DNA of 64,000 nt from Patescibacteria group bacterium (GTDB lineage: Bacteria; Patescibacteriota; Microgenomatia; 2-02-FULL-39-11), in contig JAMCUI010000011.1 in NCBI GenBank assembly GCA_023379265.1, forward strand, positions 4,030 through 68,029, in the 5' to 3' direction. The notes below the pieces were generated by a model that saw only the letters and a program-made list of their open reading frames with translations, was not told the DNA's origin and did no database searches. The position numbers were made by a program, and so were the translations under genes. This document shows positions 4,646-53,895 of this stretch, piece by piece (position 1 is the stretch's first letter; every line of letters begins with the position of its first letter).

Positions 4646-6042
4646 AGATTAGATTTTTTATGCCAATCCGTAACTTTTTGGTAAAAATAACCTAGTTTTA
4701 ACAAAAGCGGTTCGGAAAACATATTACCCAGTAGCTGCATCCCGACAGGCAAATTGCTTTTTGTAAAACCAACCGGGACAGCCAGAGAAGGGATGCCAAC
4801 GGGCGTCTGACAGGTAAATATATCCGCCAGCATGTTTTTTACCGGATCTCCTATCAATTCTCCGAGTTTTGTAGCGGGCATCGGTTCAATCGGCATTAAT
4901 ATCGCGTCACATTGTGTAAAAGCTTTGGCATATTCCTTTATGAAAAGTGTCCTTCCCTGCTGGGCCTTTTTATAATAAGCGTCATAATAACCGGCCGACA
5001 GGGCATAAGTTCCCAGCATAATCCTTCTCATGGTCTCACTTGTAAATTTATTTCTTCCATTACCATATCTTATACCGTCATATCGAGCTAGATTGGAACT
5101 GGTTTCGGACGTACCAATAAGATAGTATACTGGTACACCGTATTCCAACATGGGCATGGAGATTTCCTTTATTTCTACTCCCAACTTTGCGTACTGCTCT
5201 GCCGCTTTATATATGAGCGATTTAATCTCATTATCGACACCTTCTCCATAACATTCCTTAGGCATGCCAATAGTCATACCTTTTATATCCCCGTTTAATC
5301 TGCTCCCGTAGTCAGGAACTTCTTCAGGAGAACTGGTAGCATCCAACGGATCTTTTCCGGCTGTAACCTGCAGTATTATCGCGCAATCCTCCGCTGTCCT
5401 GGCCATCGGTCCCACAGTATCAAAGGAAGATACATAAGCGATGCATCCGTACCTTGAGACACGCCCGTACGTCACTTTAAGACCGGTAATATTACACCAT
5501 CCCGAAGGGTTGCGGATTGATCCACCAGTATCTTCACCAATACCAAATACCGCCATTCTTGCGGCAATTGCCGCTGCATTTCCGCCACTTGAACCACCGG
5601 CCACCCGTGAGTTATCCCACGGGTTTCTGACGGGACCAAAATCCGTATTTTCCGAAGAAGCACCGTGTCCCCATGCGTCCATATTTGTTTTGCCAATAAG
5701 AATTGCTCCCGCGTCTAAAAGCTTCTGGTAAACGGTAGCGTTGTATGGCGGGATATATGTCTCTAATACTTTTGAGGAAGCAGTGGTACGTATGCCTTTA
5801 GTGTTATATGAATCCTTTATTACAAAAGGTAGTCCGTAAAGTAAAGAATTGACTGGAGTTTTTTTATCTTTTTCTCTTGCCTCTTTTATGACCTCATCCT
5901 TATCCCTTAAAGTTACAAAAACATTAAGCACAGGATTTAGTTTCTCAATATTCTCATAACATTCGCGCACAAGATCTTCGCTGGAAAACTTTTTTTCCTT
6001 CAAACCCGATGCCAGCTCTTTAATACTTTTTTCTAAAAGCAT
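4642..6042 (-). CDS. gatA: Glu-tRNA(Gln)/Asp-tRNA(Asn) amidotransferase subunit A (amidase signature family)
   Basis: The protein carries the amidase signature GGSSGGNAAAIAA and GatA-like flanks. I trimmed the start to the M at 6042 (MLLEKSIKELASGL) so the gene abuts the gatC stop rather than overlapping it by 56 nt. Confidence 0.88.
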   Translation of the reverse strand: MLLEKSIKELASGLKEKKFSSEDLVRECYENIEKLNPVLNVFVTLRDKDEVIKEAREKDKKTPVNSLLYGLPFVIKDSYNTKGIRTTASSKVLETYIPPYNATVYQKLLDAGAILIGKTNMDAWGHGASSENTDFGPVRNPWDNSRVAGGSSGGNAAAIAARMAVFGIGEDTGGSIRNPSGWCNITGLKVTYGRVSRYGCIAYVSSFDTVGPMARTAEDCAIILQVTAGKDPLDATSSPEEVPDYGSRLNGDIKGMTIGMPKECYGEGVDNEIKSLIYKAAEQYAKLGVEIKEISMPMLEYGVPVYYLIGTSETSSNLARYDGIRYGNGRNKFTSETMRRIMLGTYALSAGYYDAYYKKAQQGRTLFIKEYAKAFTQCDAILMPIEPMPATKLGELIGDPVKNMLADIFTCQTPVGIPSLAVPVGFTKSNLPVGMQLLGNMFSEPLLLKLGYFYQKVTDWHKKSNL

Positions 6043-6043
6043 A

Positions 6044-6349
6044 CTAATCCTCAAAAATTGCGTCCACCACAAAATAACCTTTATGTTTTCGGGGAGCATT
6101 TCTTAGCACTTCATCCTGCGGCAATGAGACGCCGGCTTCGTCTTCACGCATGACGTTCTCCATGCCGGTCACCTGGCTTGTCGGCTCAACATTTGTAGTT
6201 TCCACTTTGGAAACCTGTTCCACCAGGTGGAGAATGGATGACAGTTGATCCTGAAAACTCTTTAACTCTCCCGCAGACAGATCCAGTTTTGCCAATGTCG
6301 CGACATGTTTAACTATGTCTGTGGTTAAAATATTTTTTCCTTTTGGCAT
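6044..6349 (-). CDS. gatC: Amidotransferase subunit C
   Basis: It is a ~100 aa protein directly upstream of gatA. ...LSAGELKSFQDQLSSILHLVEQV... matches the GatC fold/length. Confidence 0.75.
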   Translation of the reverse strand: MPKGKNILTTDIVKHVATLAKLDLSAGELKSFQDQLSSILHLVEQVSKVETTNVEPTSQVTGMENVMREDEAGVSLPQDEVLRNAPRKHKGYFVVDAIFED

Positions 6350-6450
6350 ATGCTAATTTTATCTTTTTAGATTACCTATTGCCAGTAGATCATTAAGGCC
6401 AGACTCTTTTTCCCGTCTGACCTTAATATTTGACCTGCCTGAAATTTATG

Positions 6451-7797
6451 TTACAAATTCACCAGATATCTGTCTATTTCCCAATCAGTGACAAAAGTCC
6501 TGAAGGCATCCCATTCCTCTTTCTTTGCCTCCAGATATCTTCTCCAGGTATATTCACCAAATGTCTCTTTTACCAGCCTGCCTTTTCTTATTTCCTCCAT
6601 TGCTTCATCAAGTGACGCCGGCAGCTTGGTAATATAATACTTAGCCAGTTTTTCATCATCAAATTCAAAGAGGTTTTCCTCAACCGGCCCCGGAGCTTTC
6701 ATACCTTTCTTTATACCCTCCAAACCAGCCTTGAGTAAAACAGCCAATGTCAAATAAGGATTGCTTGAAGGATCAGGACACCTTATTTCAAGGCGTGTCG
6801 CCTTATCCTCAAGCCCCTTGGAAACTCTGGGTACCCTTATCAACGCCGATCTGTTGATCCGTGCCCAACAGGCATAGACTGGAGCTTCAAATCCTGGTGT
6901 TAACCTCTTATACGAATTCACCGTCGGGGCAAAAACACCGGTTATCTCTCTTACGTGAGCCAGCTGCCCGGCCAGATATTGATATGCCACACGGGAAAGC
7001 CCGTATTTATCTGTCCTGTCATAAAAGACATTTTTACCGTTTTTCCACAAACTCTGGTGTGTATGCATCCCGCTGCCGTTTATGCCGTAGAAAGGCTTGG
7101 GCATAAATGTGACATGGAAATTATGCCTGAAGGCAATAAATTTTGCCGCCATTTTGAGTGTAACTGTATTATCAGCAGTTCTCAGAGCCCGGTCATAGCG
7201 GATGTCTATCTCATGCTGGTTATCGGCAACCTCATGCGTACTGGTTTCAGTAGCAATCCCCATACTGTCTAAAGCCTCCATAATTTCCCTTTTTATGGTG
7301 TAAGTCTCGTCCATGATGAGGTTAAAATAAAATCCGTTTCCCTGCGATACACGCATAATCTTTCCCTCATCATCTTTTGGGAAAAGGAAAAATTCACATT
7401 CCGGTCCGGCAAAATACTCATACCCCATCGATTTGGCCTCAACCAACACTCTTTTGAGTATATTCCGGGGATCCCCTTCAAAAGGCTCGTGATTAGGCTT
7501 GAATACGTCGCATATAAGTCTTGCTACGCGGCCTGATTCTACATTGTTTCTCCATGGTAAAAGGGAATAAGTTGCAGGATCGGGCATCAGAAACATATCT
7601 GACTCATGTATTCTGGCAAAGCCTTCAATTGATGACCCGTCTATCCAGACTCCTTTTTCCAAAGCTCCCTCAAGGTTATAGGCAGGAATAGTTGAACTTT
7701 TGATATTTCCCAGGAAATCTGAAAATTGCAGATCAATAAATGAAACTTTATCCCTTTTTGCTTTCGCAAGAATTTCCTTCGTAACATCTTTTGGCAT
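6451..7797 (-). CDS. glnA: Glutamine synthetase type I
   Basis: MPKDVTKEILAKAKRDKVSFIDLQFSDFLG aligns with GSI N-termini. The length of about 450 aa fits GSI. I trimmed the start from the ORF-track M at 7821 to the M at 7797. Confidence 0.88.
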   Translation of the reverse strand: MPKDVTKEILAKAKRDKVSFIDLQFSDFLGNIKSSTIPAYNLEGALEKGVWIDGSSIEGFARIHESDMFLMPDPATYSLLPWRNNVESGRVARLICDVFKPNHEPFEGDPRNILKRVLVEAKSMGYEYFAGPECEFFLFPKDDEGKIMRVSQGNGFYFNLIMDETYTIKREIMEALDSMGIATETSTHEVADNQHEIDIRYDRALRTADNTVTLKMAAKFIAFRHNFHVTFMPKPFYGINGSGMHTHQSLWKNGKNVFYDRTDKYGLSRVAYQYLAGQLAHVREITGVFAPTVNSYKRLTPGFEAPVYACWARINRSALIRVPRVSKGLEDKATRLEIRCPDPSSNPYLTLAVLLKAGLEGIKKGMKAPGPVEENLFEFDDEKLAKYYITKLPASLDEAMEEIRKGRLVKETFGEYTWRRYLEAKKEEWDAFRTFVTDWEIDRYLVNL

Positions 7798-18694: not shown

Positions 18695-18783
18695 AGGAAA
18701 ATCAAACTATTATACATTCTTATCATTTTCACTGATATAATGAAATACTCCTAGCAGGTTACAGATTTGATATAATAAAAGCA

Positions 18784-18801
18784 GAAAGTTTTTGGCGGGC
18801 T
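18784..18801. repeat. Right inverted repeat (ggcgggcttgcctcgccg) of the cassette, followed by a ~100 nt structured unassigned region
   Basis: It is the reverse complement of 16779-16795. A partial copy tttttagcgggcaag lies at 18893-18907. Confidence 0.7.
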
Positions 18802-19022
18802 TGCCTCGCCGTAGCTTTAGCGTAGGCGGGATTAGTACACCGGTAGTATGCGTCCTTCCTCCGACGAAAGCTTCGCATTCAGGTGGACACGCTTAAATAC
18901 GAAGTTTTTAGCGGGCAAGATATAAGCATGTTTTATTATACTTATGTAGAGAGAAACAGTTGAAAACTGGGTTCGGAAGAGGATATTATTAAACGAAGAT
19001 TAGACGGCTATTTAAAGTCGTT

Positions 19023-19094
19023 GCGGGCGTAGTTCAGCGGTAGAATGTCTCCTTCCCAAGGAGAAGGTCACCGGTTCAAATCCGGCCGCCCGCT
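19023..19094 (+). tRNA. tRNA-Gly (anticodon CCC)
   Basis: It has acceptor GCGGGCG/CGCCCGC, anticodon loop TTCCCAA and T-loop TTCAAAT. There is one A-C mismatch at the base of the T-stem. Confidence 0.8.
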
Positions 19095-19253
19095 CAAATC
19101 TCCGATTTCTTAGTTTCAGAATATTAGGTTATATTGAAATAATCCACGCTGAACAACATAATCTAAAAAGATCACGCAATCCAGCGTGGAAAATAATACC
19201 TAGAGACAAATCCGCTTGCGGGATAAAACAGATCCGTCTCTGACGAACCTAAC

Positions 19254-20194: not shown

Positions 20195-23100
20195 CTAATT
20201 TCCACCACTCCAATCTTTGCAAAGTAAATTTGCTTGCTCTAAAACGGTTTGGGTGGCACTTTCCTGCTTATCCGGTGGATAATTATACTTGCGTAGCAGC
20301 TTTTTAACATAAACCCTGAGTTTCGCCTGAACATTTTCCTTTATAGTCCAGTCAATCGTTGTGTTTTTGCGAAGCATGGAAACCAACTCTCTGGCAATCT
20401 GCATAAGTGTTTCGTCTCCTAATTCCCGAATTGCACTTTCATTGATACAAAGCGCATCATAAAAGGCTACTTCCTCAGGACTGAGTCCGATCTCTTTTCC
20501 TCTTTCTTTTTCTGCCCTTATTTTTTTAGCCAGTACTACAAGTTCTGCTATCACTTGAGCCGCTTCAATCGTACGGTTTTGATATTTTTTTATCGTATCC
20601 TCCAACATTTTGGCAAATGACCGTGATTTTACTAAGTTACTCCTCATCATGGTTATGACTTCATCATTTAAAAGACGTTTAAGCATTTCAAAAGCTAAAT
20701 TCTTATGAGGTAAACCTTTTACCTCAGCTAAAAATTCATCTGAAAGTATTGAAATGTCCGGCGCTTTTAATCCTGTGGCCGAATAGATATCGATAACCTT
20801 ATCTGAAACAATCGCTCCAGAAACGATTTGCTTAATAGCCTCTTGATAATCTTCATCTGTCGGACCTCCTCTGCCACCACCATCCCCACCCCCAGCTTTT
20901 CTTATTCCGGCTTTAACGGATTGGAAAAACGCTACTTCATCTCTAATTCTTATTGCTTCTTCGTGAGGCACGGATAATGAAAAAGCAAACGAGAGCTCTG
21001 TGACAGCTTGAACATACCGTTTCTCACCATCTTCTAAACCAAAAACAAAGTCAATCGCTCCCGCTATCATTCGTGTTCTATCCGACGCAGAACCATGAAG
21101 GTCTTTCTTATAATCAAATCCATGATACATACCTGAGACCACCTCATATTTTTCAAGCATAACCATCACCGCTTCTTCTTGAGGTATTGCAACTTTCTTC
21201 CGGTCGTTATCAGCATAGTAGGCAAGGGCTTCTTTTAACTCCGGTGCGATACCCAAATAGTCTACAATCAAGCCTCCTTGTTTGTCTTTGAAAACTCTGT
21301 TTACCCGGGCAATAGTCTGCATCAATCCGTGGCCTTTCATGGGTTTATCGATATACATCGTATGAAGGCTTGGCACATCAAATCCGGTAAGCCACATATC
21401 CCGGACGATAACCAGCTTTAGCTCATCATTGGGATCTTTCATCCTGTTAGCCATATCATGACGTGCCTTTTTGGTTCTGATATGTTTTTGCCAATCCAAA
21501 GGATCCATAGCAGATCCAGTCATTACTATCTTTAGAAAACCACTATTGTCATCTTCTGTTGCCCAGTCAGGACGCAGTTTGGCAATTTCGTTATATAGTT
21601 CAACCGCAATTCTTCGGCTCATCACTACAATCATTCCTTTACCCTCAACTGCGGTAAGTCTATCTTCAAAATGTTCAACTACGTCATGAGCGATAAGAGA
21701 AATTCGCTTAGGAGCACCAACCAAAGCCTCAAGTCGTGCCCACTTGCTTTTAAGTTTCTCTTTCTTTTCAATCTCTTCTCCTTCAGTTAATTCCTCAAAT
21801 TCAGGATCAATCTTTGGTCTTTCTTCTTCTTTCAGGGAAATCTTGGCAAGTCTGGCCTCATAATAAATCGGCACCGTTGCTTTATCTTCAACGGCATGCG
21901 ACACATCGTAGATATCAATATAGTCTCCGAATACTGCCCTGGTATTTTTATCGGTTAGTTCAATTGGGGTTCCGGTAAAGCCAATAAACGAAGCGTTGGG
22001 AAGAGCATCACGCATATATCTTGCAAAACCATCAACAAAATCGTACTGGCTGCGGTGGGCTTCATCAGCAATCACTACGATATTTCTTCTGTCTGACAAA
22101 AGCGGATACTCTTGACAACCGTTTTCAGGAAAAAACTTTTGTATCGTGGTAAAAATCACTCCACCTGAAGCAACTTTAAGATACTCTTTTAATTGCTCTC
22201 TGTCTTCCGCCTGTTTGGGGGTTTGGCGCAGTAAGCTTGAGCATCTGGAAAACGTCCCAAACAATTGGTCGTCAAGATCGTTCCTGTCCGTCAAAACCAC
22301 AATTGTCGGGTTACTAAGATCTTGAATAATCCTGCCCGCATAAAACACCATCGTCAAACTCTTACCTGACCCTTGTGTATGCCAGACAACACCGCAGCGC
22401 CTGTCTCCCTCTTTTTTCGTGGCCTCAATTGTCTTTTTAACCGCCTTATTTGTGGCGTGATATTGATGGTAGGCAGCTACTTTTTTAGTAATCTTCTCTC
22501 CGTCTGTCTCAAACACTACAAAGTTATTGACGATATCTAAAAGTCTTTTCTTTTCAAAAATTCCTTTAAGTAAAACCTCTAATTGAGGTAAAGAATTGGG
22601 CGCCAATTCATCTCCGTCAATTGTTCGCCATCTGGTAAACCATTCTTTGTTAGCAGAAATCGTGCCAACTCTGGCTTCCATACCATCACTGATAATTGAT
22701 AGTTCGTTAAAGGCAAAAAGTGTAGGAATATCGTTCTTGTAGGTTTGAATTTGATTAAACGCTCCGCCGATTGTCGCCCCTGTATCTGCCGGGTTCTTCA
22801 GTTCAATAACCGCAACAGGTAAACCATTTATAAAGATAACTACATCCGGCCGTCTTTGGCTTCTTCCTTCGATAATTGTAAATTGGTTTACTGCAAGAAA
22901 ATCGTTCTTGTCAGGATTTTCTGTATCTAAAATTTTTACTTTGTCTCCAGCGATTGAACCATCCGGCCGTTTATATTCAATATCAATCCCGTCTCGAAGC
23001 ATGGTATGAAAGGCTTTGTTATTAACAATGAGTTTAGGACTGGTAGTTGGTACACGGAGGACTTTTCGTAATGCTTCGTCTTTTGCTTCATCCGGTATTT

Positions 23101-23284
23101 GAGGATTGAATTTGTTAATAGCGTTTTTTAGTCTTTCAACCAGTACCACATCTTGATAACTGGTACGTTCCGGCTTCTCACCATCGGGGGGTGGGGCAAT
23201 TTCAGGTCCTCCGACAACACTATATCCCAGCTCGGCAAGCCATTCGAGCGTTGCCTGTTCTAAGTCTGATTCCGTATATTTCAT
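20195..23284 (-). CDS. hsdR: Type I restriction enzyme R subunit
   Basis: It is 1029 aa. The N-terminal nuclease region ([18 protein letters not shown]) is followed by SF2 helicase motifs ([14 protein letters not shown]; [10 protein letters not shown]). Its start overlaps the upstream gene's stop by 4 bp. Confidence 0.9.
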
Positions 23285-24069
23285 CGTGTATATCTTTCAA
23301 TAAGTAAAAATAATATACAAAGCAAAGTGATAACAGAAATAAATACTAATTTTTTTAATAAAAATGGTATTTTTTTATCATAATCTTCCAGCTTCTTAAA
23401 AATTTCCTGATAAAGAGAATTATATAAATAATTTAAGGAGTCAATTTGACCTTGATTACCGATAAGTTGGTTGTGGATTGTATCATTGGTTAAATATAAC
23501 CTATAGGCTAAATAATGCATATTCCTGTCGATTTTAATTTTACTCTTTGAAAGATTATCTACCGACAGTGAAAAAGCAGGAAACAATACTGCTCTTTTTC
23601 TTAATCCATTATTTTCTAAAAAATCTTGTAAACTACCGGAAAGAATCGGGTTAGCAGTAATGTTATACATCTGGTAATCAAGTTGTTGGTTAAAAGCAAC
23701 TATTCTTTCGTTAAATAAACTAATTTGTCGATATAGTTTTTTTGAAATAACCCTCGAATCACTAATTCCTCGCCTTGCAATTTCCACCGCAGATTCAAAT
23801 GATAATTTGAATACGATTTTATCAGGAGAAAACCATTCTTTGTCTTGATTTTTTATGTATATTCCACCAATCCAAGATGACTGCGCCATTAGTTCATCAA
23901 GAAAAGATTGAAGAAGAGCTTTCCAGGAATCATATTTGTCTAAAATCGACCTTCGATAGGCAATAATTGCTAAAATAAAAGCAACAAAAGTTATCAAGTC
24001 ACCACTTTTGATTGGAGAAAGATAAAAACAGATGAAATCTAATATTAAGTACCCAATTTGATTGCACAT
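23281..24069 (-). CDS. Hypothetical protein with two TM segments, embedded between hsdS and hsdR
   Basis: This 262 aa protein has an N-terminal TM ([14 protein letters not shown]), a C-terminal TM ([17 protein letters not shown]) and a ~180 aa soluble middle. The ATGA overlap with hsdR and the 1-bp gap to hsdS imply co-translation with the restriction-modification genes. Confidence 0.5.
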
Positions 24070-24070
24070 A

Positions 24071-25702
24071 TCAATTCACCCTTAATTTTCCACTCATCAA
24101 CCTTGGTAGTAAAACATTGCGAACCTTACTTAAGTTAATATTTAGCTTTGCTAACAAGACAATTTGCCTTGATATATTCAAAGTCAATTCCGAGTAGTAT
24201 TTAAGCAATACAGAATCAATGTTTGAGAGCACGATCTTATATTCCGACATCTGATTCCAACTAGTTCTTGGCATTTTCGTACCAGTAGATGCATTACTTA
24301 TTTGGGATATAAATTTGTCATCAAACAGAGTAAATAGCATCGGTCCTAAGTATTTTTCATCCTTAGGTTTAATCACTAAAATATCTGTAGAACATATTCC
24401 CTCGAATGGAGCTACTGCAACATTTTTAAAATATGGTCTTAATTTGCCAAAAAGAATGTCTCCTATTGAAAATGACCATTTATCACTAGAAACCTCTGTT
24501 GAAAAACCATAGTTTTCTAATGAGAGTGATCCTCCTGTAAAATGTTCTAAACCTATATACTTAGACTCGGATGATACCGCTCTTGGTTTTATTTTTATCC
24601 TTATATTCTCTGAAATATCACAAAGTTTTTTTATTTCCCATCCCTTCGGTATCTCTCCTAATTCCGACTCAACCATCTCGCCGCCTGCCTGCCTGAGCCT
24701 ACCGGCTATTTCTTCCCGATCCAACCACTTTCTACCAAAACCGGTTTTCAACCACTTTTCTCGAGCTGCTGCCTCCTGTTTGTTTGAAAGTCCTTCCCAA
24801 TGAATAATCTTTACCGGTTTATATTGAAGTGTATATTTTGCACCAGTTCCAGTAACGTGTTCATGATATCGTTTAAGAATAAAATCAGTCATGCCTATGT
24901 AGCGGTATCCGTTTTCCAGCTCGAGAACATAAACAAAATACTTATCAGACTCAGGCGCAGGTAAACCGCCAAATGATTTGTAGCCATAGCACATCAACTC
25001 AAGATGCGCGGCTTGCGTGCGCTCGCCATAGGCGAGCAGGCACGGAAATTCGAAATCCACAAACCACCTATTAAAAAGCGCTTTTCCAATTTCCTCTAAA
25101 GCCGTATTCATCTTTTTATTGAGTTCGATCCTGTCATCAAGAGAAGAAAGAAAACCCGCAATCTGTTTCTGTTGTTGCATCGGAGGACATGGGGCTAATA
25201 TCTTCTTAAAATCGGTTTTATTGAACTTAGGCACTGCACTCCCACTTTTAATATCGTTTAAGGCCTGTTGACCATATATACTCTTTAACCAGTAATAGAA
25301 AAAAGTGTCATCGTATTTTGTCTTAAGGGTTATCGAGTTTGGTCCTAACGTCATTGGGTAATTTAACTGAGGTGCTCTATAAACAGTCCCAGAGTATTCA
25401 CCAACATTAGAAATAATAATTTCACCACCAGTTAATTTTGATTTTTTAAGATATTCATATCCCTCTTTATTTACATAAACAAAATTCCCTTGAAAATTTT
25501 TATTGTAATCAGCTAATCGAATAAGTACTGCGTGGTCAGGGATATCGTTATACCTAACATGAAATTTAAGAGAAGCGAAACTCCCGTTTGCTACATAATC
25601 TGTAACAACACTACATATTTGAGCCATCGTCTCCACCTTCCAATCCTCAGGAATATTGCCGATTTCAGTTTGTTTATATTTCGTTTGACTTTTGTTTGAC
25701 AT
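24071..25702 (-). CDS. hsdS: Type I restriction-modification specificity subunit with an in-frame GIY-YIG (YhbQ/Slx1-type) nuclease domain between the central conserved region and TRD2
   Basis: Two target-recognition domains bracket the conserved ...ALFNRWFVDFEFP and C-terminal ...LPRLMSGKLRV elements. Residues ~240-340 read YFVYVLELENGYRYIGMTDFILKRYHEHVTGTGAKYTLQYKPVKIIHWEGLSNKQEAAAREKWLK, which is the GIY...YIG / R / H / GAKYT / E signature. Confidence 0.85.
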   Translation of the reverse strand: MSNKSQTKYKQTEIGNIPEDWKVETMAQICSVVTDYVANGSFASLKFHVRYNDIPDHAVLIRLADYNKNFQGNFVYVNKEGYEYLKKSKLTGGEIIISNVGEYSGTVYRAPQLNYPMTLGPNSITLKTKYDDTFFYYWLKSIYGQQALNDIKSGSAVPKFNKTDFKKILAPCPPMQQQKQIAGFLSSLDDRIELNKKMNTALEEIGKALFNRWFVDFEFPCLLAYGERTQAAHLELMCYGYKSFGGLPAPESDKYFVYVLELENGYRYIGMTDFILKRYHEHVTGTGAKYTLQYKPVKIIHWEGLSNKQEAAAREKWLKTGFGRKWLDREEIAGRLRQAGGEMVESELGEIPKGWEIKKLCDISENIRIKIKPRAVSSESKYIGLEHFTGGSLSLENYGFSTEVSSDKWSFSIGDILFGKLRPYFKNVAVAPFEGICSTDILVIKPKDEKYLGPMLFTLFDDKFISQISNASTGTKMPRTSWNQMSEYKIVLSNIDSVLLKYYSELTLNISRQIVLLAKLNINLSKVRNVLLPRLMSGKLRVN

Positions 25703-25787: not shown

Positions 25788-26477
25788 CTACTTTCTACTC
25801 CAATCTACTTCCCAACAATTAAACTTGTTTTTTCCGACTTTTCTTTTAAGTTCCAGCACTTTTTGAGCGATTCTTGTTTTGTTTCCTTCTTTATCTCCAG
25901 AATCTGGATTTAATGAATATAAGAAACCACCCAAAAGCATATCCGCAAGTTGAACAGGTAAAACTCCGTGAGATTCTGTTTGGAGAATATTGTATACTTT
26001 TGGAATATCTTGACAAACAAATTCAATCTTTTTCCGGGAATCCTTTGGTTTACGTTGATAATCTGCAATGATGATGGTTTCTTCACTTTTCCACACAGTT
26101 TTTTTGACCAGCATTTTAATAAATGAGACATATTTTCCCCATCTCTGTATATGATTAGCTGGTTTAATAAAACCTATATCGTTTGTATCAAAATACAAAC
26201 AATTAAATTCCCAATCATAATCTCCATCAAGCTTGCTAATAAAATCAATGTCGAATTGAATACTTTTTGATGTTGTACTTTTAAAACTGAATTCCACTTT
26301 TGTTTCATCTTTCTTTAATTGACTGACCAATCCTTCGTAAACAGGATGAAGACGTTCGAGCAACGCTATTGGTTTTATGTGCTTAAATGCACCAATACCA
26401 AAGTATGACTTTCCATCATGAACTGGATTTAATACCCCACTTTCATCTATAAAAGTAAAGGTTTTAATTACCGTCAT
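25788..26477 (-). CDS. DUF3800-like protein embedded between hsdM and hsdS
   Basis: The N-terminus [18 protein letters not shown] matches the DUF3800 hallmark (hydrophobic-x-DESG). It is 229 aa and its stop overlaps the hsdM start region (26474-26477). Confidence 0.55.
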
Positions 26478-28000
26478 ACTTTGAATCCAACTTTTTCTAA
26501 ATTTTCTCTAATTTTCTGTTCTAAATCCTTTGACTGTTTAAATTGTTCTGATAATTCTTTTGTTAACCTTGTCATCTTTTCCTCAAAGGCCTCATCGTCT
26601 TCCTCTACAAAGTCCGTGCCTACATAACGGCCGGGAGTCAAAACGTATCCGTTCTTTTCGACTTCTTCTATCGATGTTGCCTTGCAAAAACCCTTTATAT
26701 CTTCATATTTACCGTTTTTGTTTCTCCAGTTGTGATATGTTCCTGATATTTGTTGCAGTTCCTCATCCGAAAGTTCCCTGTGTCTTCGGTCAACCAGTTT
26801 TCCCAGCTTACGGGCGTCAATAAAGAGTATTTCATCATGTCTGTCTCTGAATTTGTTGTTATAGCGGTCTCTTGACACAAACCAAAGGCAAGCCGGAATC
26901 TGGACGGTATAAAAAAGTTTATCCGGCATGGCTAAAATACAATCAACCAGTCCGGCTTTTATCATCTTTTTCCTGATTTCTCCCTCGCCTGAAGTATTAG
27001 AGGATAGTGAACCGTTAGCCATGACAAACCCTGCTATACCTGTTGGTGATAAATGATGGATAAAGTGTTGAATCCATCCGTAGTTAGCATTTCCTGTCGG
27101 AGGAGTGCCGTATTTCCACCTTACGTCTTCCCGTAACCGCTCACCGCCCCAGTCGCTGATGTTAAAAGGAGGATTGGCAAGGATAAAATCTGCTTTTAGG
27201 TCTTTATGCTGGTCATTATGGAAGCTGTCACCCAGATAAATATGTTTGCTTTCGATCCCTCTAATAGCCAGATTCATCTTACAAAGCCGCCAGGTGGTAG
27301 CGTTTGACTCCTGCCCGAAGATCGAAACGTCATCAACCCGCCCGCCATGGCTTTCTGCAAACTTCTCGCTTTGCACAAACATCCCGCCACTGCCACAACA
27401 CGGATCAAACACTCTCCCTTTGTATGGCTCAAGCACCGATACCAGAAGTTTGACTACAGATTGCGGGGTAAAGAACTCGCCGCCGCCTTTACCCTCTGCA
27501 CTAGCAAACCTTCCGATGAAATACTCGTAAACCCGGCCGAGTATATCCTTTGACCGGCTTTCCTTATCTCCTAAACCGATTGTGCCTATAAGATCAATAA
27601 GCTCTCCTAATCGCTGTTTATCTAAAGTGGGGCGGGCATAATCTTTGGGAAGCACCCCTTTAAGCGACGGGTTTTCTTTTTCGATTGCCACCATCGCATC
27701 ATCAACAAGTTTTCCAATTTCCGCTTTCTTGGCGTTTTGAAGTAGAAAATTCCAGCGGGCTTCTTGAGGTACCCAGAATACGTTCTCTGCTAAGTATTCG
27801 TCTTTATCCTCTGGATCTGATAATTTGTCAGCTTTTAATTTTTCGTGTAGTTCTTCGAAAGAGTCAGAGATATATTTAAGAAAGATAAGTCCCAATACAA
27901 CATGCTTATACTCTGAGGGGTCCATATTGTTCCGCATCTTATCGGCAGCCGCCCACAGTTTTTCCTCGAACCCCAGGTTTGCAGAAGTTGATTTAGCCAT
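26474..28000 (-). CDS. hsdM: Type I restriction-modification N6-adenine DNA methyltransferase subunit
   Basis: It has the [14 protein letters not shown] (NPPF) catalytic motif, the SAM-binding [11 protein letters not shown] motif and an HsdM N-terminal domain. Confidence 0.9.
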
Positions 28001-53680: not shown

Positions 53681-53895
53681 AAAAATCCCCCATTCGGGGG
53701 AAACATAATAAATATAGGGTTTAGAGCAAAATAAGCCTAACCCTATCTCTTCTTTCTTTTATCCCGACTTTACGGTCGCTACCGGAGTTGCACCGGTTCA
53801 TGTCCGATTTTATATCAGACTCGTAGAGTTTAACTACCGATTGGGAATTTTCCGCTTGATGCGCAATCACCCATACCCCGAAAGAATAAGTAGAT
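53681..53895 (-). promoter_or_regulatory. FMN riboswitch (RFN element) with an intrinsic terminator
   Basis: The minus-strand RNA UUCUUUCGGGGUAUGGGUGA...GGAAAAUUCCCAAUCGGUAGU...CGGUGCAACUCCGGUAGCGACCGUAAAGUCGGGAUAAAAGAAAGAAG matches the RFN core (P1 UUCUUUC/GAAAGAA; GGGUGA; AAUUCCC; GCGAC.GUAAAGUC.GGAU). It is followed by the terminator UCCCCCGAAUGGGGGAUUUUUU at 53681-53705, then GGGAGGA and the ATG. Confidence 0.7.

Follow-up and report, generated by a model that had tools for sequence, protein, structure and literature searches.

The Rickettsia palindromic elements (RPEs) are in-frame palindromes that are retained in proteins, encode no enzyme and are confined to Rickettsia. The repetitive extragenic palindromic (REP) sequences and REPINs, together with their RAYT partners (REPtrons), are also GC-rich hairpin repeats, in this case with a nuclease gene flanked by inverted repeats, the RAYTs being HUH enzymes of the Y1 type and the system extragenic. 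Selfish nuclease genes that invade conserved genes are represented by the GIY-YIG homing endonucleases (I-TevI and the free-standing Seg and Mob enzymes of the T-even phages), and inteins are in-frame selfish insertions with a nuclease that are translated together with their hosts. The GIY-YIG superfamily itself is built on a domain of about 100 amino acids that combines its two name-giving motifs, GIY and YIG, with an Arg in the centre and a Glu on the C-terminal side (PMC1564403). In this regard, Dunin-Horkawicz and co-workers already reported in 2006 an Slx1-like GIY-YIG domain at about position 800 of the HsdR subunit of Methylococcus capsulatus, an insert absent from an 80%-identical homologue, which the authors judged to be recent and probably non-functional or unneeded for function (PMC1564403). 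Here we analyse a domain of this superfamily in HsdS, the specificity subunit of a Type I restriction-modification (R-M) system of a Patescibacteria group bacterium, encoded in a stretch of 64,000 nucleotides of contig JAMCUI010000011.1 (assembly GCA_023379265.1, positions 4,030 to 68,029 of the forward strand; hereafter the window, with positions counted from its first letter). In our view, this domain is probably the product of a selfish, in-frame, palindrome-bounded nuclease cassette, which is translated as a part of its host protein.

The insert of the M. capsulatus HsdR (MCA0838) very likely belongs to the same cassette family, being also an Slx1-like GIY-YIG domain placed in-frame in a Type I subunit, but the 2006 report dealt with a single case, for which repeat ends, other hosts and mobility were not recognised. 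That remark on HsdR (PMC1564403) is the only earlier mention of such an insertion that we found. The full-text literature searched, with most subscription journals outside its coverage, did not describe the cassette, the ends or the range of hosts, and no paper in it linked GIY-YIG enzymes with REPs. Among the described systems, the homing endonucleases are alike as selfish nuclease genes invading conserved genes, and the recurrent sites of the cassette at the QDPND^EPAS motif of HsdS, as homing predicts, are suggestive. Homing enzymes, however, have DNA-binding domains of their own, lie in introns or between genes, are not translated with the host and have no conserved element ends (PMC1564403), and I-TevI matches the cassette module with just E=0.059. 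Inteins offer the likeness of an in-frame nuclease translated with its host, but the cassette has neither a Hint domain (Pfam) nor splicing residues, as its first residues are Leu-Pro and its last ones Ala-Gly, with Gly, Glu or Lys as the next residue of the host. Self-splicing introns and other structured RNAs do not fit either, with no match in Rfam between 24000 and 25800 and a cassette that is almost entirely ORF (open reading frame). With the transposons carrying terminal inverted repeats, the cassette has in common conserved ends of ~18-20 bp across phyla, with covariation, but not a target-site duplication or a recognised transposase, the GIY-YIG nuclease being the sole encoded protein. 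The RPEs are similar as in-frame palindromes in functional genes, including those of aminoacyl-tRNA synthetases, and mini-hairpins of 30-63 nt related to the cassette behave in an RPE-like manner, but the cassette family has a nuclease-encoding member and spans more than 15 phyla. The REP/RAYT systems likewise combine hairpin repeats with a nuclease gene flanked by them, whereas the enzyme of the cassette is GIY-YIG instead of HUH and the unit resides inside ORFs. Altogether, the cassette departs from homing genes, inteins, RPEs and RAYTs in a defining feature of each.

The nuclease domain and its place in HsdS

The initial annotation had proposed, for the 543-amino acid product of the hsdS ORF (24071..25702, on the minus strand like all the features of the operon described below), a GIY-YIG nuclease domain of the YhbQ/Slx1 type with the conserved R and H and a downstream E, and every one of these points was confirmed. 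The Pfam family GIY-YIG (PF01541) matched residues 254-320 (24743..24943) with E=1.9e-10 and 41.3 bits over a cutoff of 22.6 bits, the peptide originally quoted corresponding to residues 255-319. A profile of the module against the PDB retrieved the UPF0213 proteins BH0048 (1zg2, E=3.7e-16) and EF2693 (1ywl, E=5.6e-15), followed by weaker matches to T4 EndoII (0.0046), Slx1 (0.024) and I-TevI (0.059). Residues at the conserved positions of the family are all present, and they are invariant or nearly so (Y258, Y268/G270, R278, H282 and E315). The domain belongs to the UPF0213/YhbQ-Slx1 clade of the GIY-YIG superfamily. In the AlphaFold2 model of the whole HsdS (mean predicted local distance difference test, pLDDT, of 86), the inserted alpha/beta domain (residues 249-337) reached pLDDT values of 86-97, and Foldseek matched it to 1zg2 and to Slx1 7cq3 with a root-mean-square deviation (rmsd) of 2.0 A over 78 columns. 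As this confident domain sits between segments with pLDDT <50 (residues 216-248 and 338-348), the model depicts the nuclease as a separately folded domain on flexible tethers.

The stand-alone UPF0213/YhbQ proteins (BH0048 and EF2693 among them) have the same fold and motif set, but they are encoded by separate genes of 80-107 amino acids with their own start and stop and without inverted-repeat ends, whereas the copy of the window is embedded in its host. Slx1 (PDB 4xlg, 7cq3 and 6seh) belongs to the same GIY-YIG subfamily and matches in structure as mentioned, but it has a RING/zinc-finger domain, needs Slx4 and shows a weak sequence similarity to the module. Other free-standing homologues lack the LPAP and RQAG ends and keep the KTGFGR C-terminal helix (P0312, P0302 and P0363, the last one a protein of 81 amino acids from a Moranbacteria genome); such homologues are the probable ancestors of the cassette. 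A tblastn search in the window detected only a short and degenerate GIY-YIG remnant, ...CREKQLKTGFGRGYY*, at ~18945-18986 of the plus strand (within 18780-18990), which has stops and no intact N-terminal half, lies just upstream of a tRNA-Gly(ccc) (19023-19095) and resembles the free-standing proteins of 81 amino acids from the candidate phyla radiation (CPR) such as P0363. Rfam searches around this remnant gave the tRNA only.

The host protein is a bona fide Type I HsdS. Two stretches of it matched Methylase_S in Pfam (E=3.2e-23), the PADLOC model Specificity_I was found with E=3.6e-65, and the HsdS frame had its best Foldseek match in the HsdS structure 1yf2 (E=3.3e-15), with 1ydx and 2y7c also retrieved. 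The protein has two target recognition domains (TRDs) and two conserved helical regions (CRs), and hsdM and hsdR are found in the same operon. TRD1 (residues 1-172; 25187..25702) was modelled with pLDDT >90 and overlaps the first Methylase_S stretch (18-203), and it is followed by the central conserved helix CR1 (residues 175-215; 25058..25180), which ends in ...WFVDFEFP and is seen in the AlphaFold2 model and in the alignment with HsdS homologues. TRD2 (residues 349-495; 24218..24658) is likewise seen in the model and corresponds to the second Methylase_S stretch, and the C-terminal conserved helix CR2 (24092..24214) spans residues 497-537 of the model.

At the hinge between CR1 and TRD2, the closest insert-free HsdS homologues (430-450 amino acids) read ...WFVDFEFPNEEGKPYKSSGGEMVESELGEIP, and the HsdS of the window reads ...WFVDFEFP, followed by CLLAYGERTQAAHLELMCYG, YKSFGG, the cassette LPAPESDK...GRLRQAG and then GEMVESELGEIP... 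Because the insert-free homologues align across this region, the extra sequence can be placed exactly, and in-frame, between the central conserved region and TRD2, as it was initially described. The single insert of ~110 residues of that description was right in its size, with ~113 extra amino acids, but not in its unity: the alignment resolves two separate insertions of 60 and 282 nt, with the host residues YKSFGG (24965..24982; YKSSGG in uninserted HsdS) in between. The first insertion (24983..25042) is a GC-rich segment encoding residues 221-240, CLLAYGERTQAAHLELMCYG, which replaces NEEGKP of the uninserted homologues and falls within the low-pLDDT linker of the model. The second one is the GIY-YIG cassette (24683..24964), with 282 nt or 94 codons encoding residues 247-340, and it has neither a start codon nor a stop codon of its own.

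Palindromic ends, hosts and mini-hairpins

The ends of the cassette are imperfect inverted repeats of ~18-20 bp, which read LPAP (left) and RQAG (right) in frame. In the window, the left repeat (24946..24965, minus strand) is T-TTACCTGCGCCTGAGTCTG and the right repeat (24684..24701, minus strand) is TAGGCTCAGGCAGGCAGG, for family consensus sequences C-CTGCCTGCGCCGCGRCC and GGYCGGRCGCGGCAGGCAGG obtained from 58 aligned copies. The termini of these 58 copies are near-invariant across phyla and GC contents and read (GA)C-CTGCCTGCGCCGCGRCC... at the left end and ...GGYCGGRCGCGGCAGGCAGG-N at the right one, the end repeats of the element being CCTGCCTGCGCCGCG... / ...CGCGGCAGGCAGG. Of the copies with recognisable ends, 41 out of 58 are exactly 282 nt long. 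Pairing of both ends gives an outer helix of 9 bp, a 2-nt bulge and an inner helix of 9 bp, and the base that precedes the cassette, always a pyrimidine, pairs with G281, the preceding codon being mostly GAC or GAT (Asp). The conservation is also seen at third codon positions, where the identity to the majority base reaches 79-97% in the first four codons (1-4) and 85-100% near the other end (codons 89-93), compared to a mean of 49% in the core.

An ungapped alignment of 39 copies of 282 nt (A3) revealed that the ends covary. In the terminal stem, 87% of the cells pair, versus 30-50% in controls with the partner shifted by 1-3 columns, and double changes occur in 29 cells versus 9.8±2.7 in shuffled alignments, none of which out of 500 reached 29. 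Compensatory changes were found at 7 of the 18 stem pairs, and an apparent covariation between amino acids (R...T/A, Q...L and E...L) corresponds to exactly reverse-complementary codons. The copy of the window is itself an example, its CCTGAG/CTCAGG being a compensatory departure from the CGCG/CGCG of the consensus. Moreover, it shares all of its terminal 15 nt with L083, a metagenome copy described below, despite a proportion of synonymous differences (pS) of 0.61 in the core. The GC content falls from 0.59 at the ends to 0.40 in the core (0.43 for the whole cassette), compared to 0.34 for the remaining hsdS, which suggests that the core has drifted towards the composition of the host with the ends being held.

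The breadth of the family came out in deeper protein and genome searches. A first word-index search with the insert retrieved 2 proteins only, and a profile word-index search gave mainly short and partial gene calls. Exhaustive phmmer searches over 1.84 billion cluster representatives, done with the module, yielded 2831 matches (254 of them <1e-10), which showed the same boundaries at very different positions of proteins of 100-675 amino acids. These boundaries are recurrent and sharp, LPAP...KTGFGRKW...AGR(T/L)RQAG, and occur inside host sequence that is otherwise continuous. In the HsdS example, the flanks are ...KLVPQDPND and EPASELLERIK, a precise insertion of the form QDPND/LPAP..RQAG/EPASELL. 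The cassette is preceded by ...HLGHVFDD and followed by GPTKTGKRYC in MsrB, and for TrmD the corresponding flanks are ...DFAQG and KHKITDDMAYGG. Pfam domains of the hosts were scanned in 104 proteins out of the 150 best 50%-identity cluster representatives, and Methylase_S was found in 87 of them, so the same insertion, for which the initial annotation advised a search, is present in many other HsdS; SelR/MsrB, HSDR_N, EcoEI_R_C, MGMT, SET, TfoX, DUF1156 and NUDIX were also detected.

A scan of genomes, taking one per species (GTDB), yielded 374 loci that were confirmed, and the best 80 of these were used further. The loci span more than 15 phyla, with bacterial carriers among the Patescibacteria (Saccharibacteria, Parcubacteria and others), Bacteroidota, Desulfobacterota, Nitrospirota, Nitrospinota, Planctomycetota, Verrucomicrobiota, Chloroflexota, Acidobacteriota, Binatia and Omnitrophota, together with one archaeal metagenome-assembled genome (MAG). 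Two of the carriers are cultured, Salegentibacter echinorum DSM 24579 (L078) and Tangfeifania diversioriginum DSM 27063, and M. capsulatus, through MCA0838, is very likely a further one. In all 80 kept loci, the module is in-frame and the host ORF (193-1307 amino acids) continues on both sides. The hosts of R-M or related type are HsdS (37 loci), HsdR (11), HsdM (1), DUF1156 (4), an Eco57I-type methylase (2) and a Type ISP enzyme (1), so that Type I subunits account for 49 of the 80 loci and R-M or related DNA-methylase proteins for ~70%. The other hosts include alanyl- and arginyl-tRNA synthetases (AlaRS and ArgRS), TrmD, MsrB (2 loci), a PduO-type adenosyltransferase, MGMT, SET and radical SAM proteins. 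The initial annotation knew of no described Type I system with this architecture, but an architecture special to this system is not supported, as the cassette occurs in HsdS, HsdR, HsdM and unrelated housekeeping enzymes of many phyla.

Within HsdS, the cassette is found at no fewer than three different sites (at least 3), many copies being at the conserved QDPND^EPAS motif. The HsdS of a Zetaproteobacteria MAG (L037:2356-3972) carries two divergent cassettes ~125 amino acids apart, at different sites of the central region, and another MAG has two divergent cassettes of its own (L052 and L068). No copies of the cassette were found in the viral contigs of IMG/VR or in the plasmids of PLSDB, the latter having only free-standing GIY-YIG genes with <50% identity. 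Some HsdS homologues of 517-547 amino acids (P0192, P0194, P0230 and ~15 more) carry a nucleotidyltransferase of the Pol-beta/MNT type (PF18765, PF01909) before TRD1. The idea of the HsdS hinge as a general hotspot for other domains was rejected, since these Pol-beta domains are N-terminal fusions and unrelated.

The ends of the cassette also occur on their own. The right end is often a complete small hairpin in itself, as in SPVPESKLRQAG, which is CCTGTGCCTGAGT-CTAA-ACTCAGGCAGGCAGG, and mini-hairpins of 30-63 nt made of the left and right ends alone are present in the same host ORFs as the cassette. In-frame examples were found in six loci (L034, L035, L051, L057, L060 and L068), in either orientation and in several frames. 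The two-end pattern was detected in at least 120 metagenome contigs (L085-L204), mostly as hairpins of 30 and 33 nt, palindromic also in the middle part that the pattern leaves open. Both lengths, with CTGCCTGCGCCGAGGCTTCGGCAGGCAGG as the 30-nt form, recur in numerous environmental contigs that are unrelated to each other, frequently away from long ORFs, and they make up an abundant REP-like repeat family with the same termini as the cassette. Although the length of the metagenome mini-hairpins was a multiple of three in 108 out of 125 cases, this was driven by the two abundant families of 30 and 33 nt and is not taken as evidence of a coding constraint. With about half of them away from long ORFs and in a mixture of frames, the mini-hairpins behave generally like repeats of the REP or MITE (miniature inverted-repeat transposable element) type, not exclusively as coding sequences. 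Two DUF1156 loci (L068:2332-3954 and L077:2365-3963) hold, besides the cassette, a RAYT-like domain of the IS200-like Y1 transposase type, also in-frame and placed after the repeat-derived peptides GQAGSLPY and GTGFQPV; nuclease or transposase modules may therefore reside in-frame more widely.

The first insertion of the window HsdS probably belongs to this hairpin family, to which its sequence shows several resemblances. Its 5' part (25017-25043) can form the hairpin GTGC-CT-GCTCGCC/GGCGAGC-GCAC, where an outer helix GTGC/GCAC, a 2-nt CT bulge and an inner helix of 7 bp give the same architecture as in the mini-hairpins. Moreover, it has the TGCCTGC motif in common with the cassette ends, and a 'CL' reading frame like the one of mini-hairpins elsewhere. 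The same hairpin architecture, with another inner-stem sequence, is found in L083 and in L001 (FWPU01141737.1, an NCBI metagenome contig with the cassette at the same HsdS site as the window), the stem of L001 being a different complementary sequence. A search of the hairpin pattern across the 64 kb of the window gave no further matches. The sequence GGCAGGCAGG, with one mismatch allowed, had 8 matches in the window versus 1.9 expected, and these were rejected as ordinary coding sequence (GatB, MetK and Tgt).

Selection on the cassette and the Type I operon of the window

The nuclease core is under strong purifying selection, with ratios of nonsynonymous to synonymous rates (dN/dS) of 0.03-0.17 in the closest pairs, synonymous sites being saturated in most of the comparisons. 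The closest relative of the window operon came from L083, which together with L084 is an ENA metagenome contig. The cassette proteins of the window and L083 are 81% identical, and the proportions of nonsynonymous (pN) and synonymous differences in the core are 0.079 and 0.61 (pN/pS ~0.13), a tighter constraint than that of the flanking CR1 (0.15 and 0.73, or 0.21). The cassette of the window has been long inherited with its hsdS lineage. Among the 39 aligned copies of 282 nt, the closest elements at unrelated sites are L013 and L016, with 82% nucleotide identity and unrelated flanks; both of them reside in msrB genes of Saccharibacteria, at different positions.

The operon of the window starts with hsdM (26474..28000, minus strand), which encodes an intact protein of 508 amino acids with the Pfam domains N6_Mtase (E=2.5e-108) and HsdM_N. 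It is followed by a DUF3800 gene (25788..26477), matched by the PADLOC candidate-defence model PDC-M04A with E=2e-8, then by hsdS, by a gene for a protein of 262 amino acids with hydrophobic N- and C-termini (23281..24069), for which no family match was found, and by an intact hsdR (20195..23284; 1029 amino acids, with HSDR_N, SWI2_SNF2, T1R_D3-like and T1RH-like_C in Pfam). With hsdM, hsdS and hsdR at full length, the Type I system apparently is intact. The order of genes is the same in L083, that is, hsdM, DUF3800, hsdS with the cassette, an unknown gene and hsdR, but in this contig hsdM is split (88 and 442 amino acids) and hsdR is fragmented and truncated (genes at 158-1740 and 5209-6995), whereas the cassette-bearing hsdS is intact. 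The breakage of hsdM and hsdR could be a real decay of the R-M system with the cassette ORF kept, or result from assembly frameshifts. At the gathering threshold of Rfam, the whole window yielded nothing but 4 tRNAs and an FMN riboswitch (RF00050, 71.2 bits; 53747-53889, minus strand), an ordinary one that adjoins a tRNA-Val.

Readings of the cassette and their meaning

A selfish cassette of this kind would persist if its insertion is in-frame and falls in a loop at the surface or in a hinge of the encoded protein, and read-through translation would then add an extra globular domain, flexibly tethered, with the function of the host kept. The sequences show directly the anatomy of the element, its conserved ends, its place in-frame within many unrelated proteins, the purifying selection on the nuclease and the accompanying hairpins formed by both ends. 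Mobility is what we infer from the sequence comparisons, and the nuclease would be the driver of the spread. By homing, it would cut conserved empty sites and repair would copy the cassette in, a route plausible for the QDPND^EPAS sites. Alternatively, in the manner of Slx1, it may act on a hairpin or cruciform of its own ends, which would allow a transposition-like entry into new genes. Slx1 is known to cut branched and stem-loop DNA, and the ends of the cassette could form such a structure. After translation, the cassette is most likely retained in the mature protein.

The main rival to this explanation, which we regard as unlikely, is that of an exapted Type I effector, where a GIY-YIG domain tethered to the hinge gives the M2S1 or R2M2S1 complexes a cleavage activity independent of HsdR, or a fail-safe. 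Type I subunits make up a share of the hosts (49 of the 80 loci, and 87 of the 104 scanned proteins with Methylase_S) that is far above their share of genes, the nuclease is intact at the conserved positions and co-inherited with hsdS under a lower pN/pS than CR1, the three hsd genes of the window are full length, and the flexible linkers of the model would let the domain reach DNA. However, the same cassette with the same ends is present in AlaRS, ArgRS, TrmD, MsrB, PduO, SET, where an R-M role is impossible, and a role purely at the protein level leaves the synonymous conservation and the covariation of the ends unexplained. It is because of these hosts, tRNA synthetases, TrmD and MsrB, and of the covarying DNA ends that an effector is not favoured, and nothing observed here requires one. 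In the same direction point the different sites occupied within HsdS, the fragmented hsdM and hsdR that accompany an intact cassette-bearing hsdS in L083, and the HsdR case of 2006 with its 80%-identical homologue devoid of the insert (PMC1564403). A module purpose-built for HsdS, in the catalytic or fail-safe role that was initially envisaged, finds no support either, since the same module and ends are inserted in unrelated hosts.

Another possibility, which looks improbable to us, would reduce the GIY-YIG ORF to a passenger in the loop of REP- or MITE-like ends moved in trans, either by a RAYT-type Y1 transposase or by the replication and repair of the host. The abundance of solo hairpins with the same ends, half of them outside long ORFs, in both orientations and several frames, is in agreement with it, as are the in-frame Y1 transposase domains in the hosts of L068 and L077. 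Nonetheless, a passenger ORF is not expected to show a dN/dS of 0.03-0.17 with its active-site positions unchanged across phyla, nor a length fixed at 282 nt in most copies. The window, for its part, lacks a Y1 transposase, and searching its 64 kb gave no further copy of the hairpin. It is very improbable that the cassette works as an intervening sequence, excised from RNA through its paired ends or spliced out of the protein to leave a mature HsdS without the nuclease. The ends can certainly form a stem of ~18 bp that brings the flanks together, and the insertion is tolerated in essential genes of reduced genomes (AlaRS, ArgRS and TrmD). Yet the downstream frame is kept in 80 of 80 loci, which would be needless with splicing, Rfam gave no match between 24000 and 25800 (E up to 1), a group I or II ribozyme would not fit into 282 nt that are nearly all coding, G-U pairs and A-C mismatches are balanced in the stem, and the junctions, L...G and then G, E or K, are those of a protein without a Hint domain or intein nucleophiles. 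Lastly, an artefact of assembly or sequencing that fused a separate GIY-YIG ORF into hsdS can be practically dismissed. A broken frame does surround the same insertion in the metagenome fragment L001, with a stop inside the first hairpin segment upstream and another break downstream, which makes it either a decaying copy or a sequencing error. The 543-amino acid protein is, however, identical in an NCBI record ('restriction endonuclease subunit S [Patescibacteria group bacterium]') and in the independent Logan assembly SRR10278331, so the fusion is not an assembly artefact; numerous relatives, 81-66% identical across the insert, have the same architecture, and the insertion lengths are precise multiples of three. 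The frameshift that the initial annotation considered as a possible refutation was not there.

Coming back to the selfish cassette, several observations weigh against it. Near-identical copies at different sites were not found, the best pair being the one with 82% nucleotide identity, nor was a strain-level pair with and without the cassette in the data analysed, and the nearest insert-free homologues of the window HsdS are ~50% identical at most, the one close pair, with 80% identity, being that of the HsdR reported in 2006. There is no visible target-site duplication, as the insertion adds 94 codons exactly and leaves the flanks unduplicated. Enzymes of the GIY-YIG type act as hydrolytic nucleases and, to our knowledge, not as transposases, so that the chemistry of integration would be without precedent. 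Neither IMG/VR nor PLSDB yielded a copy that would point to a vehicle between phyla. As G-U and A-C mismatches are balanced in the stem (37 and 31) and there is no strand asymmetry, the ends may equally be a double-stranded repeat bound by a protein, a DNA hairpin or cruciform, or an RNA stem. Moreover, the cassette has been kept intact in its hsdS lineage through saturating synonymous divergence, and it has a strong bias to Type I R-M genes. This bias may reflect the dispensability of such genes, their frequent horizontal transfer and their conserved target motifs, but together with the long retention it fits equally well a role beneficial to the host or exapted by it.

We suggest tentatively, at somewhat less than even chances, that the cassette stands for an unrecognised class of mobile elements: an autonomous in-frame palindromic cassette that carries, within a REP-like hairpin loop, a minimal GIY-YIG nuclease devoid of its own translation signals, is expressed solely as a domain inside the invaded protein, and propagates itself and derivatives of 30-63 nt over more than 15 phyla, with a strong preference for Type I R-M genes. 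If this is true, there would be a third way for selfish nuclease genes to live inside host genes, besides introns and inteins, in which the cassette stays as a tolerated extra domain and the conserved cis element is its DNA ends, not a splicing machine. Such an element would be the functional counterpart of inteins and intron-borne homing endonucleases without any splicing, and a natural source of domain insertions in proteins. It would also explain the recurrent and so far unremarked GIY-YIG-bearing proteins annotated as 'restriction endonuclease subunit S' or HsdR, which calls for caution before fusions of GIY-YIG and R-M proteins are read as new defence architectures. For the widespread small UPF0213/YhbQ nucleases, whose function is unknown, GC-rich hairpins would become a candidate substrate. 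In this line, the cassette would offer a system for studying how the insertion of a domain is tolerated by proteins, including the essential aminoacyl-tRNA synthetases of the reduced CPR genomes.

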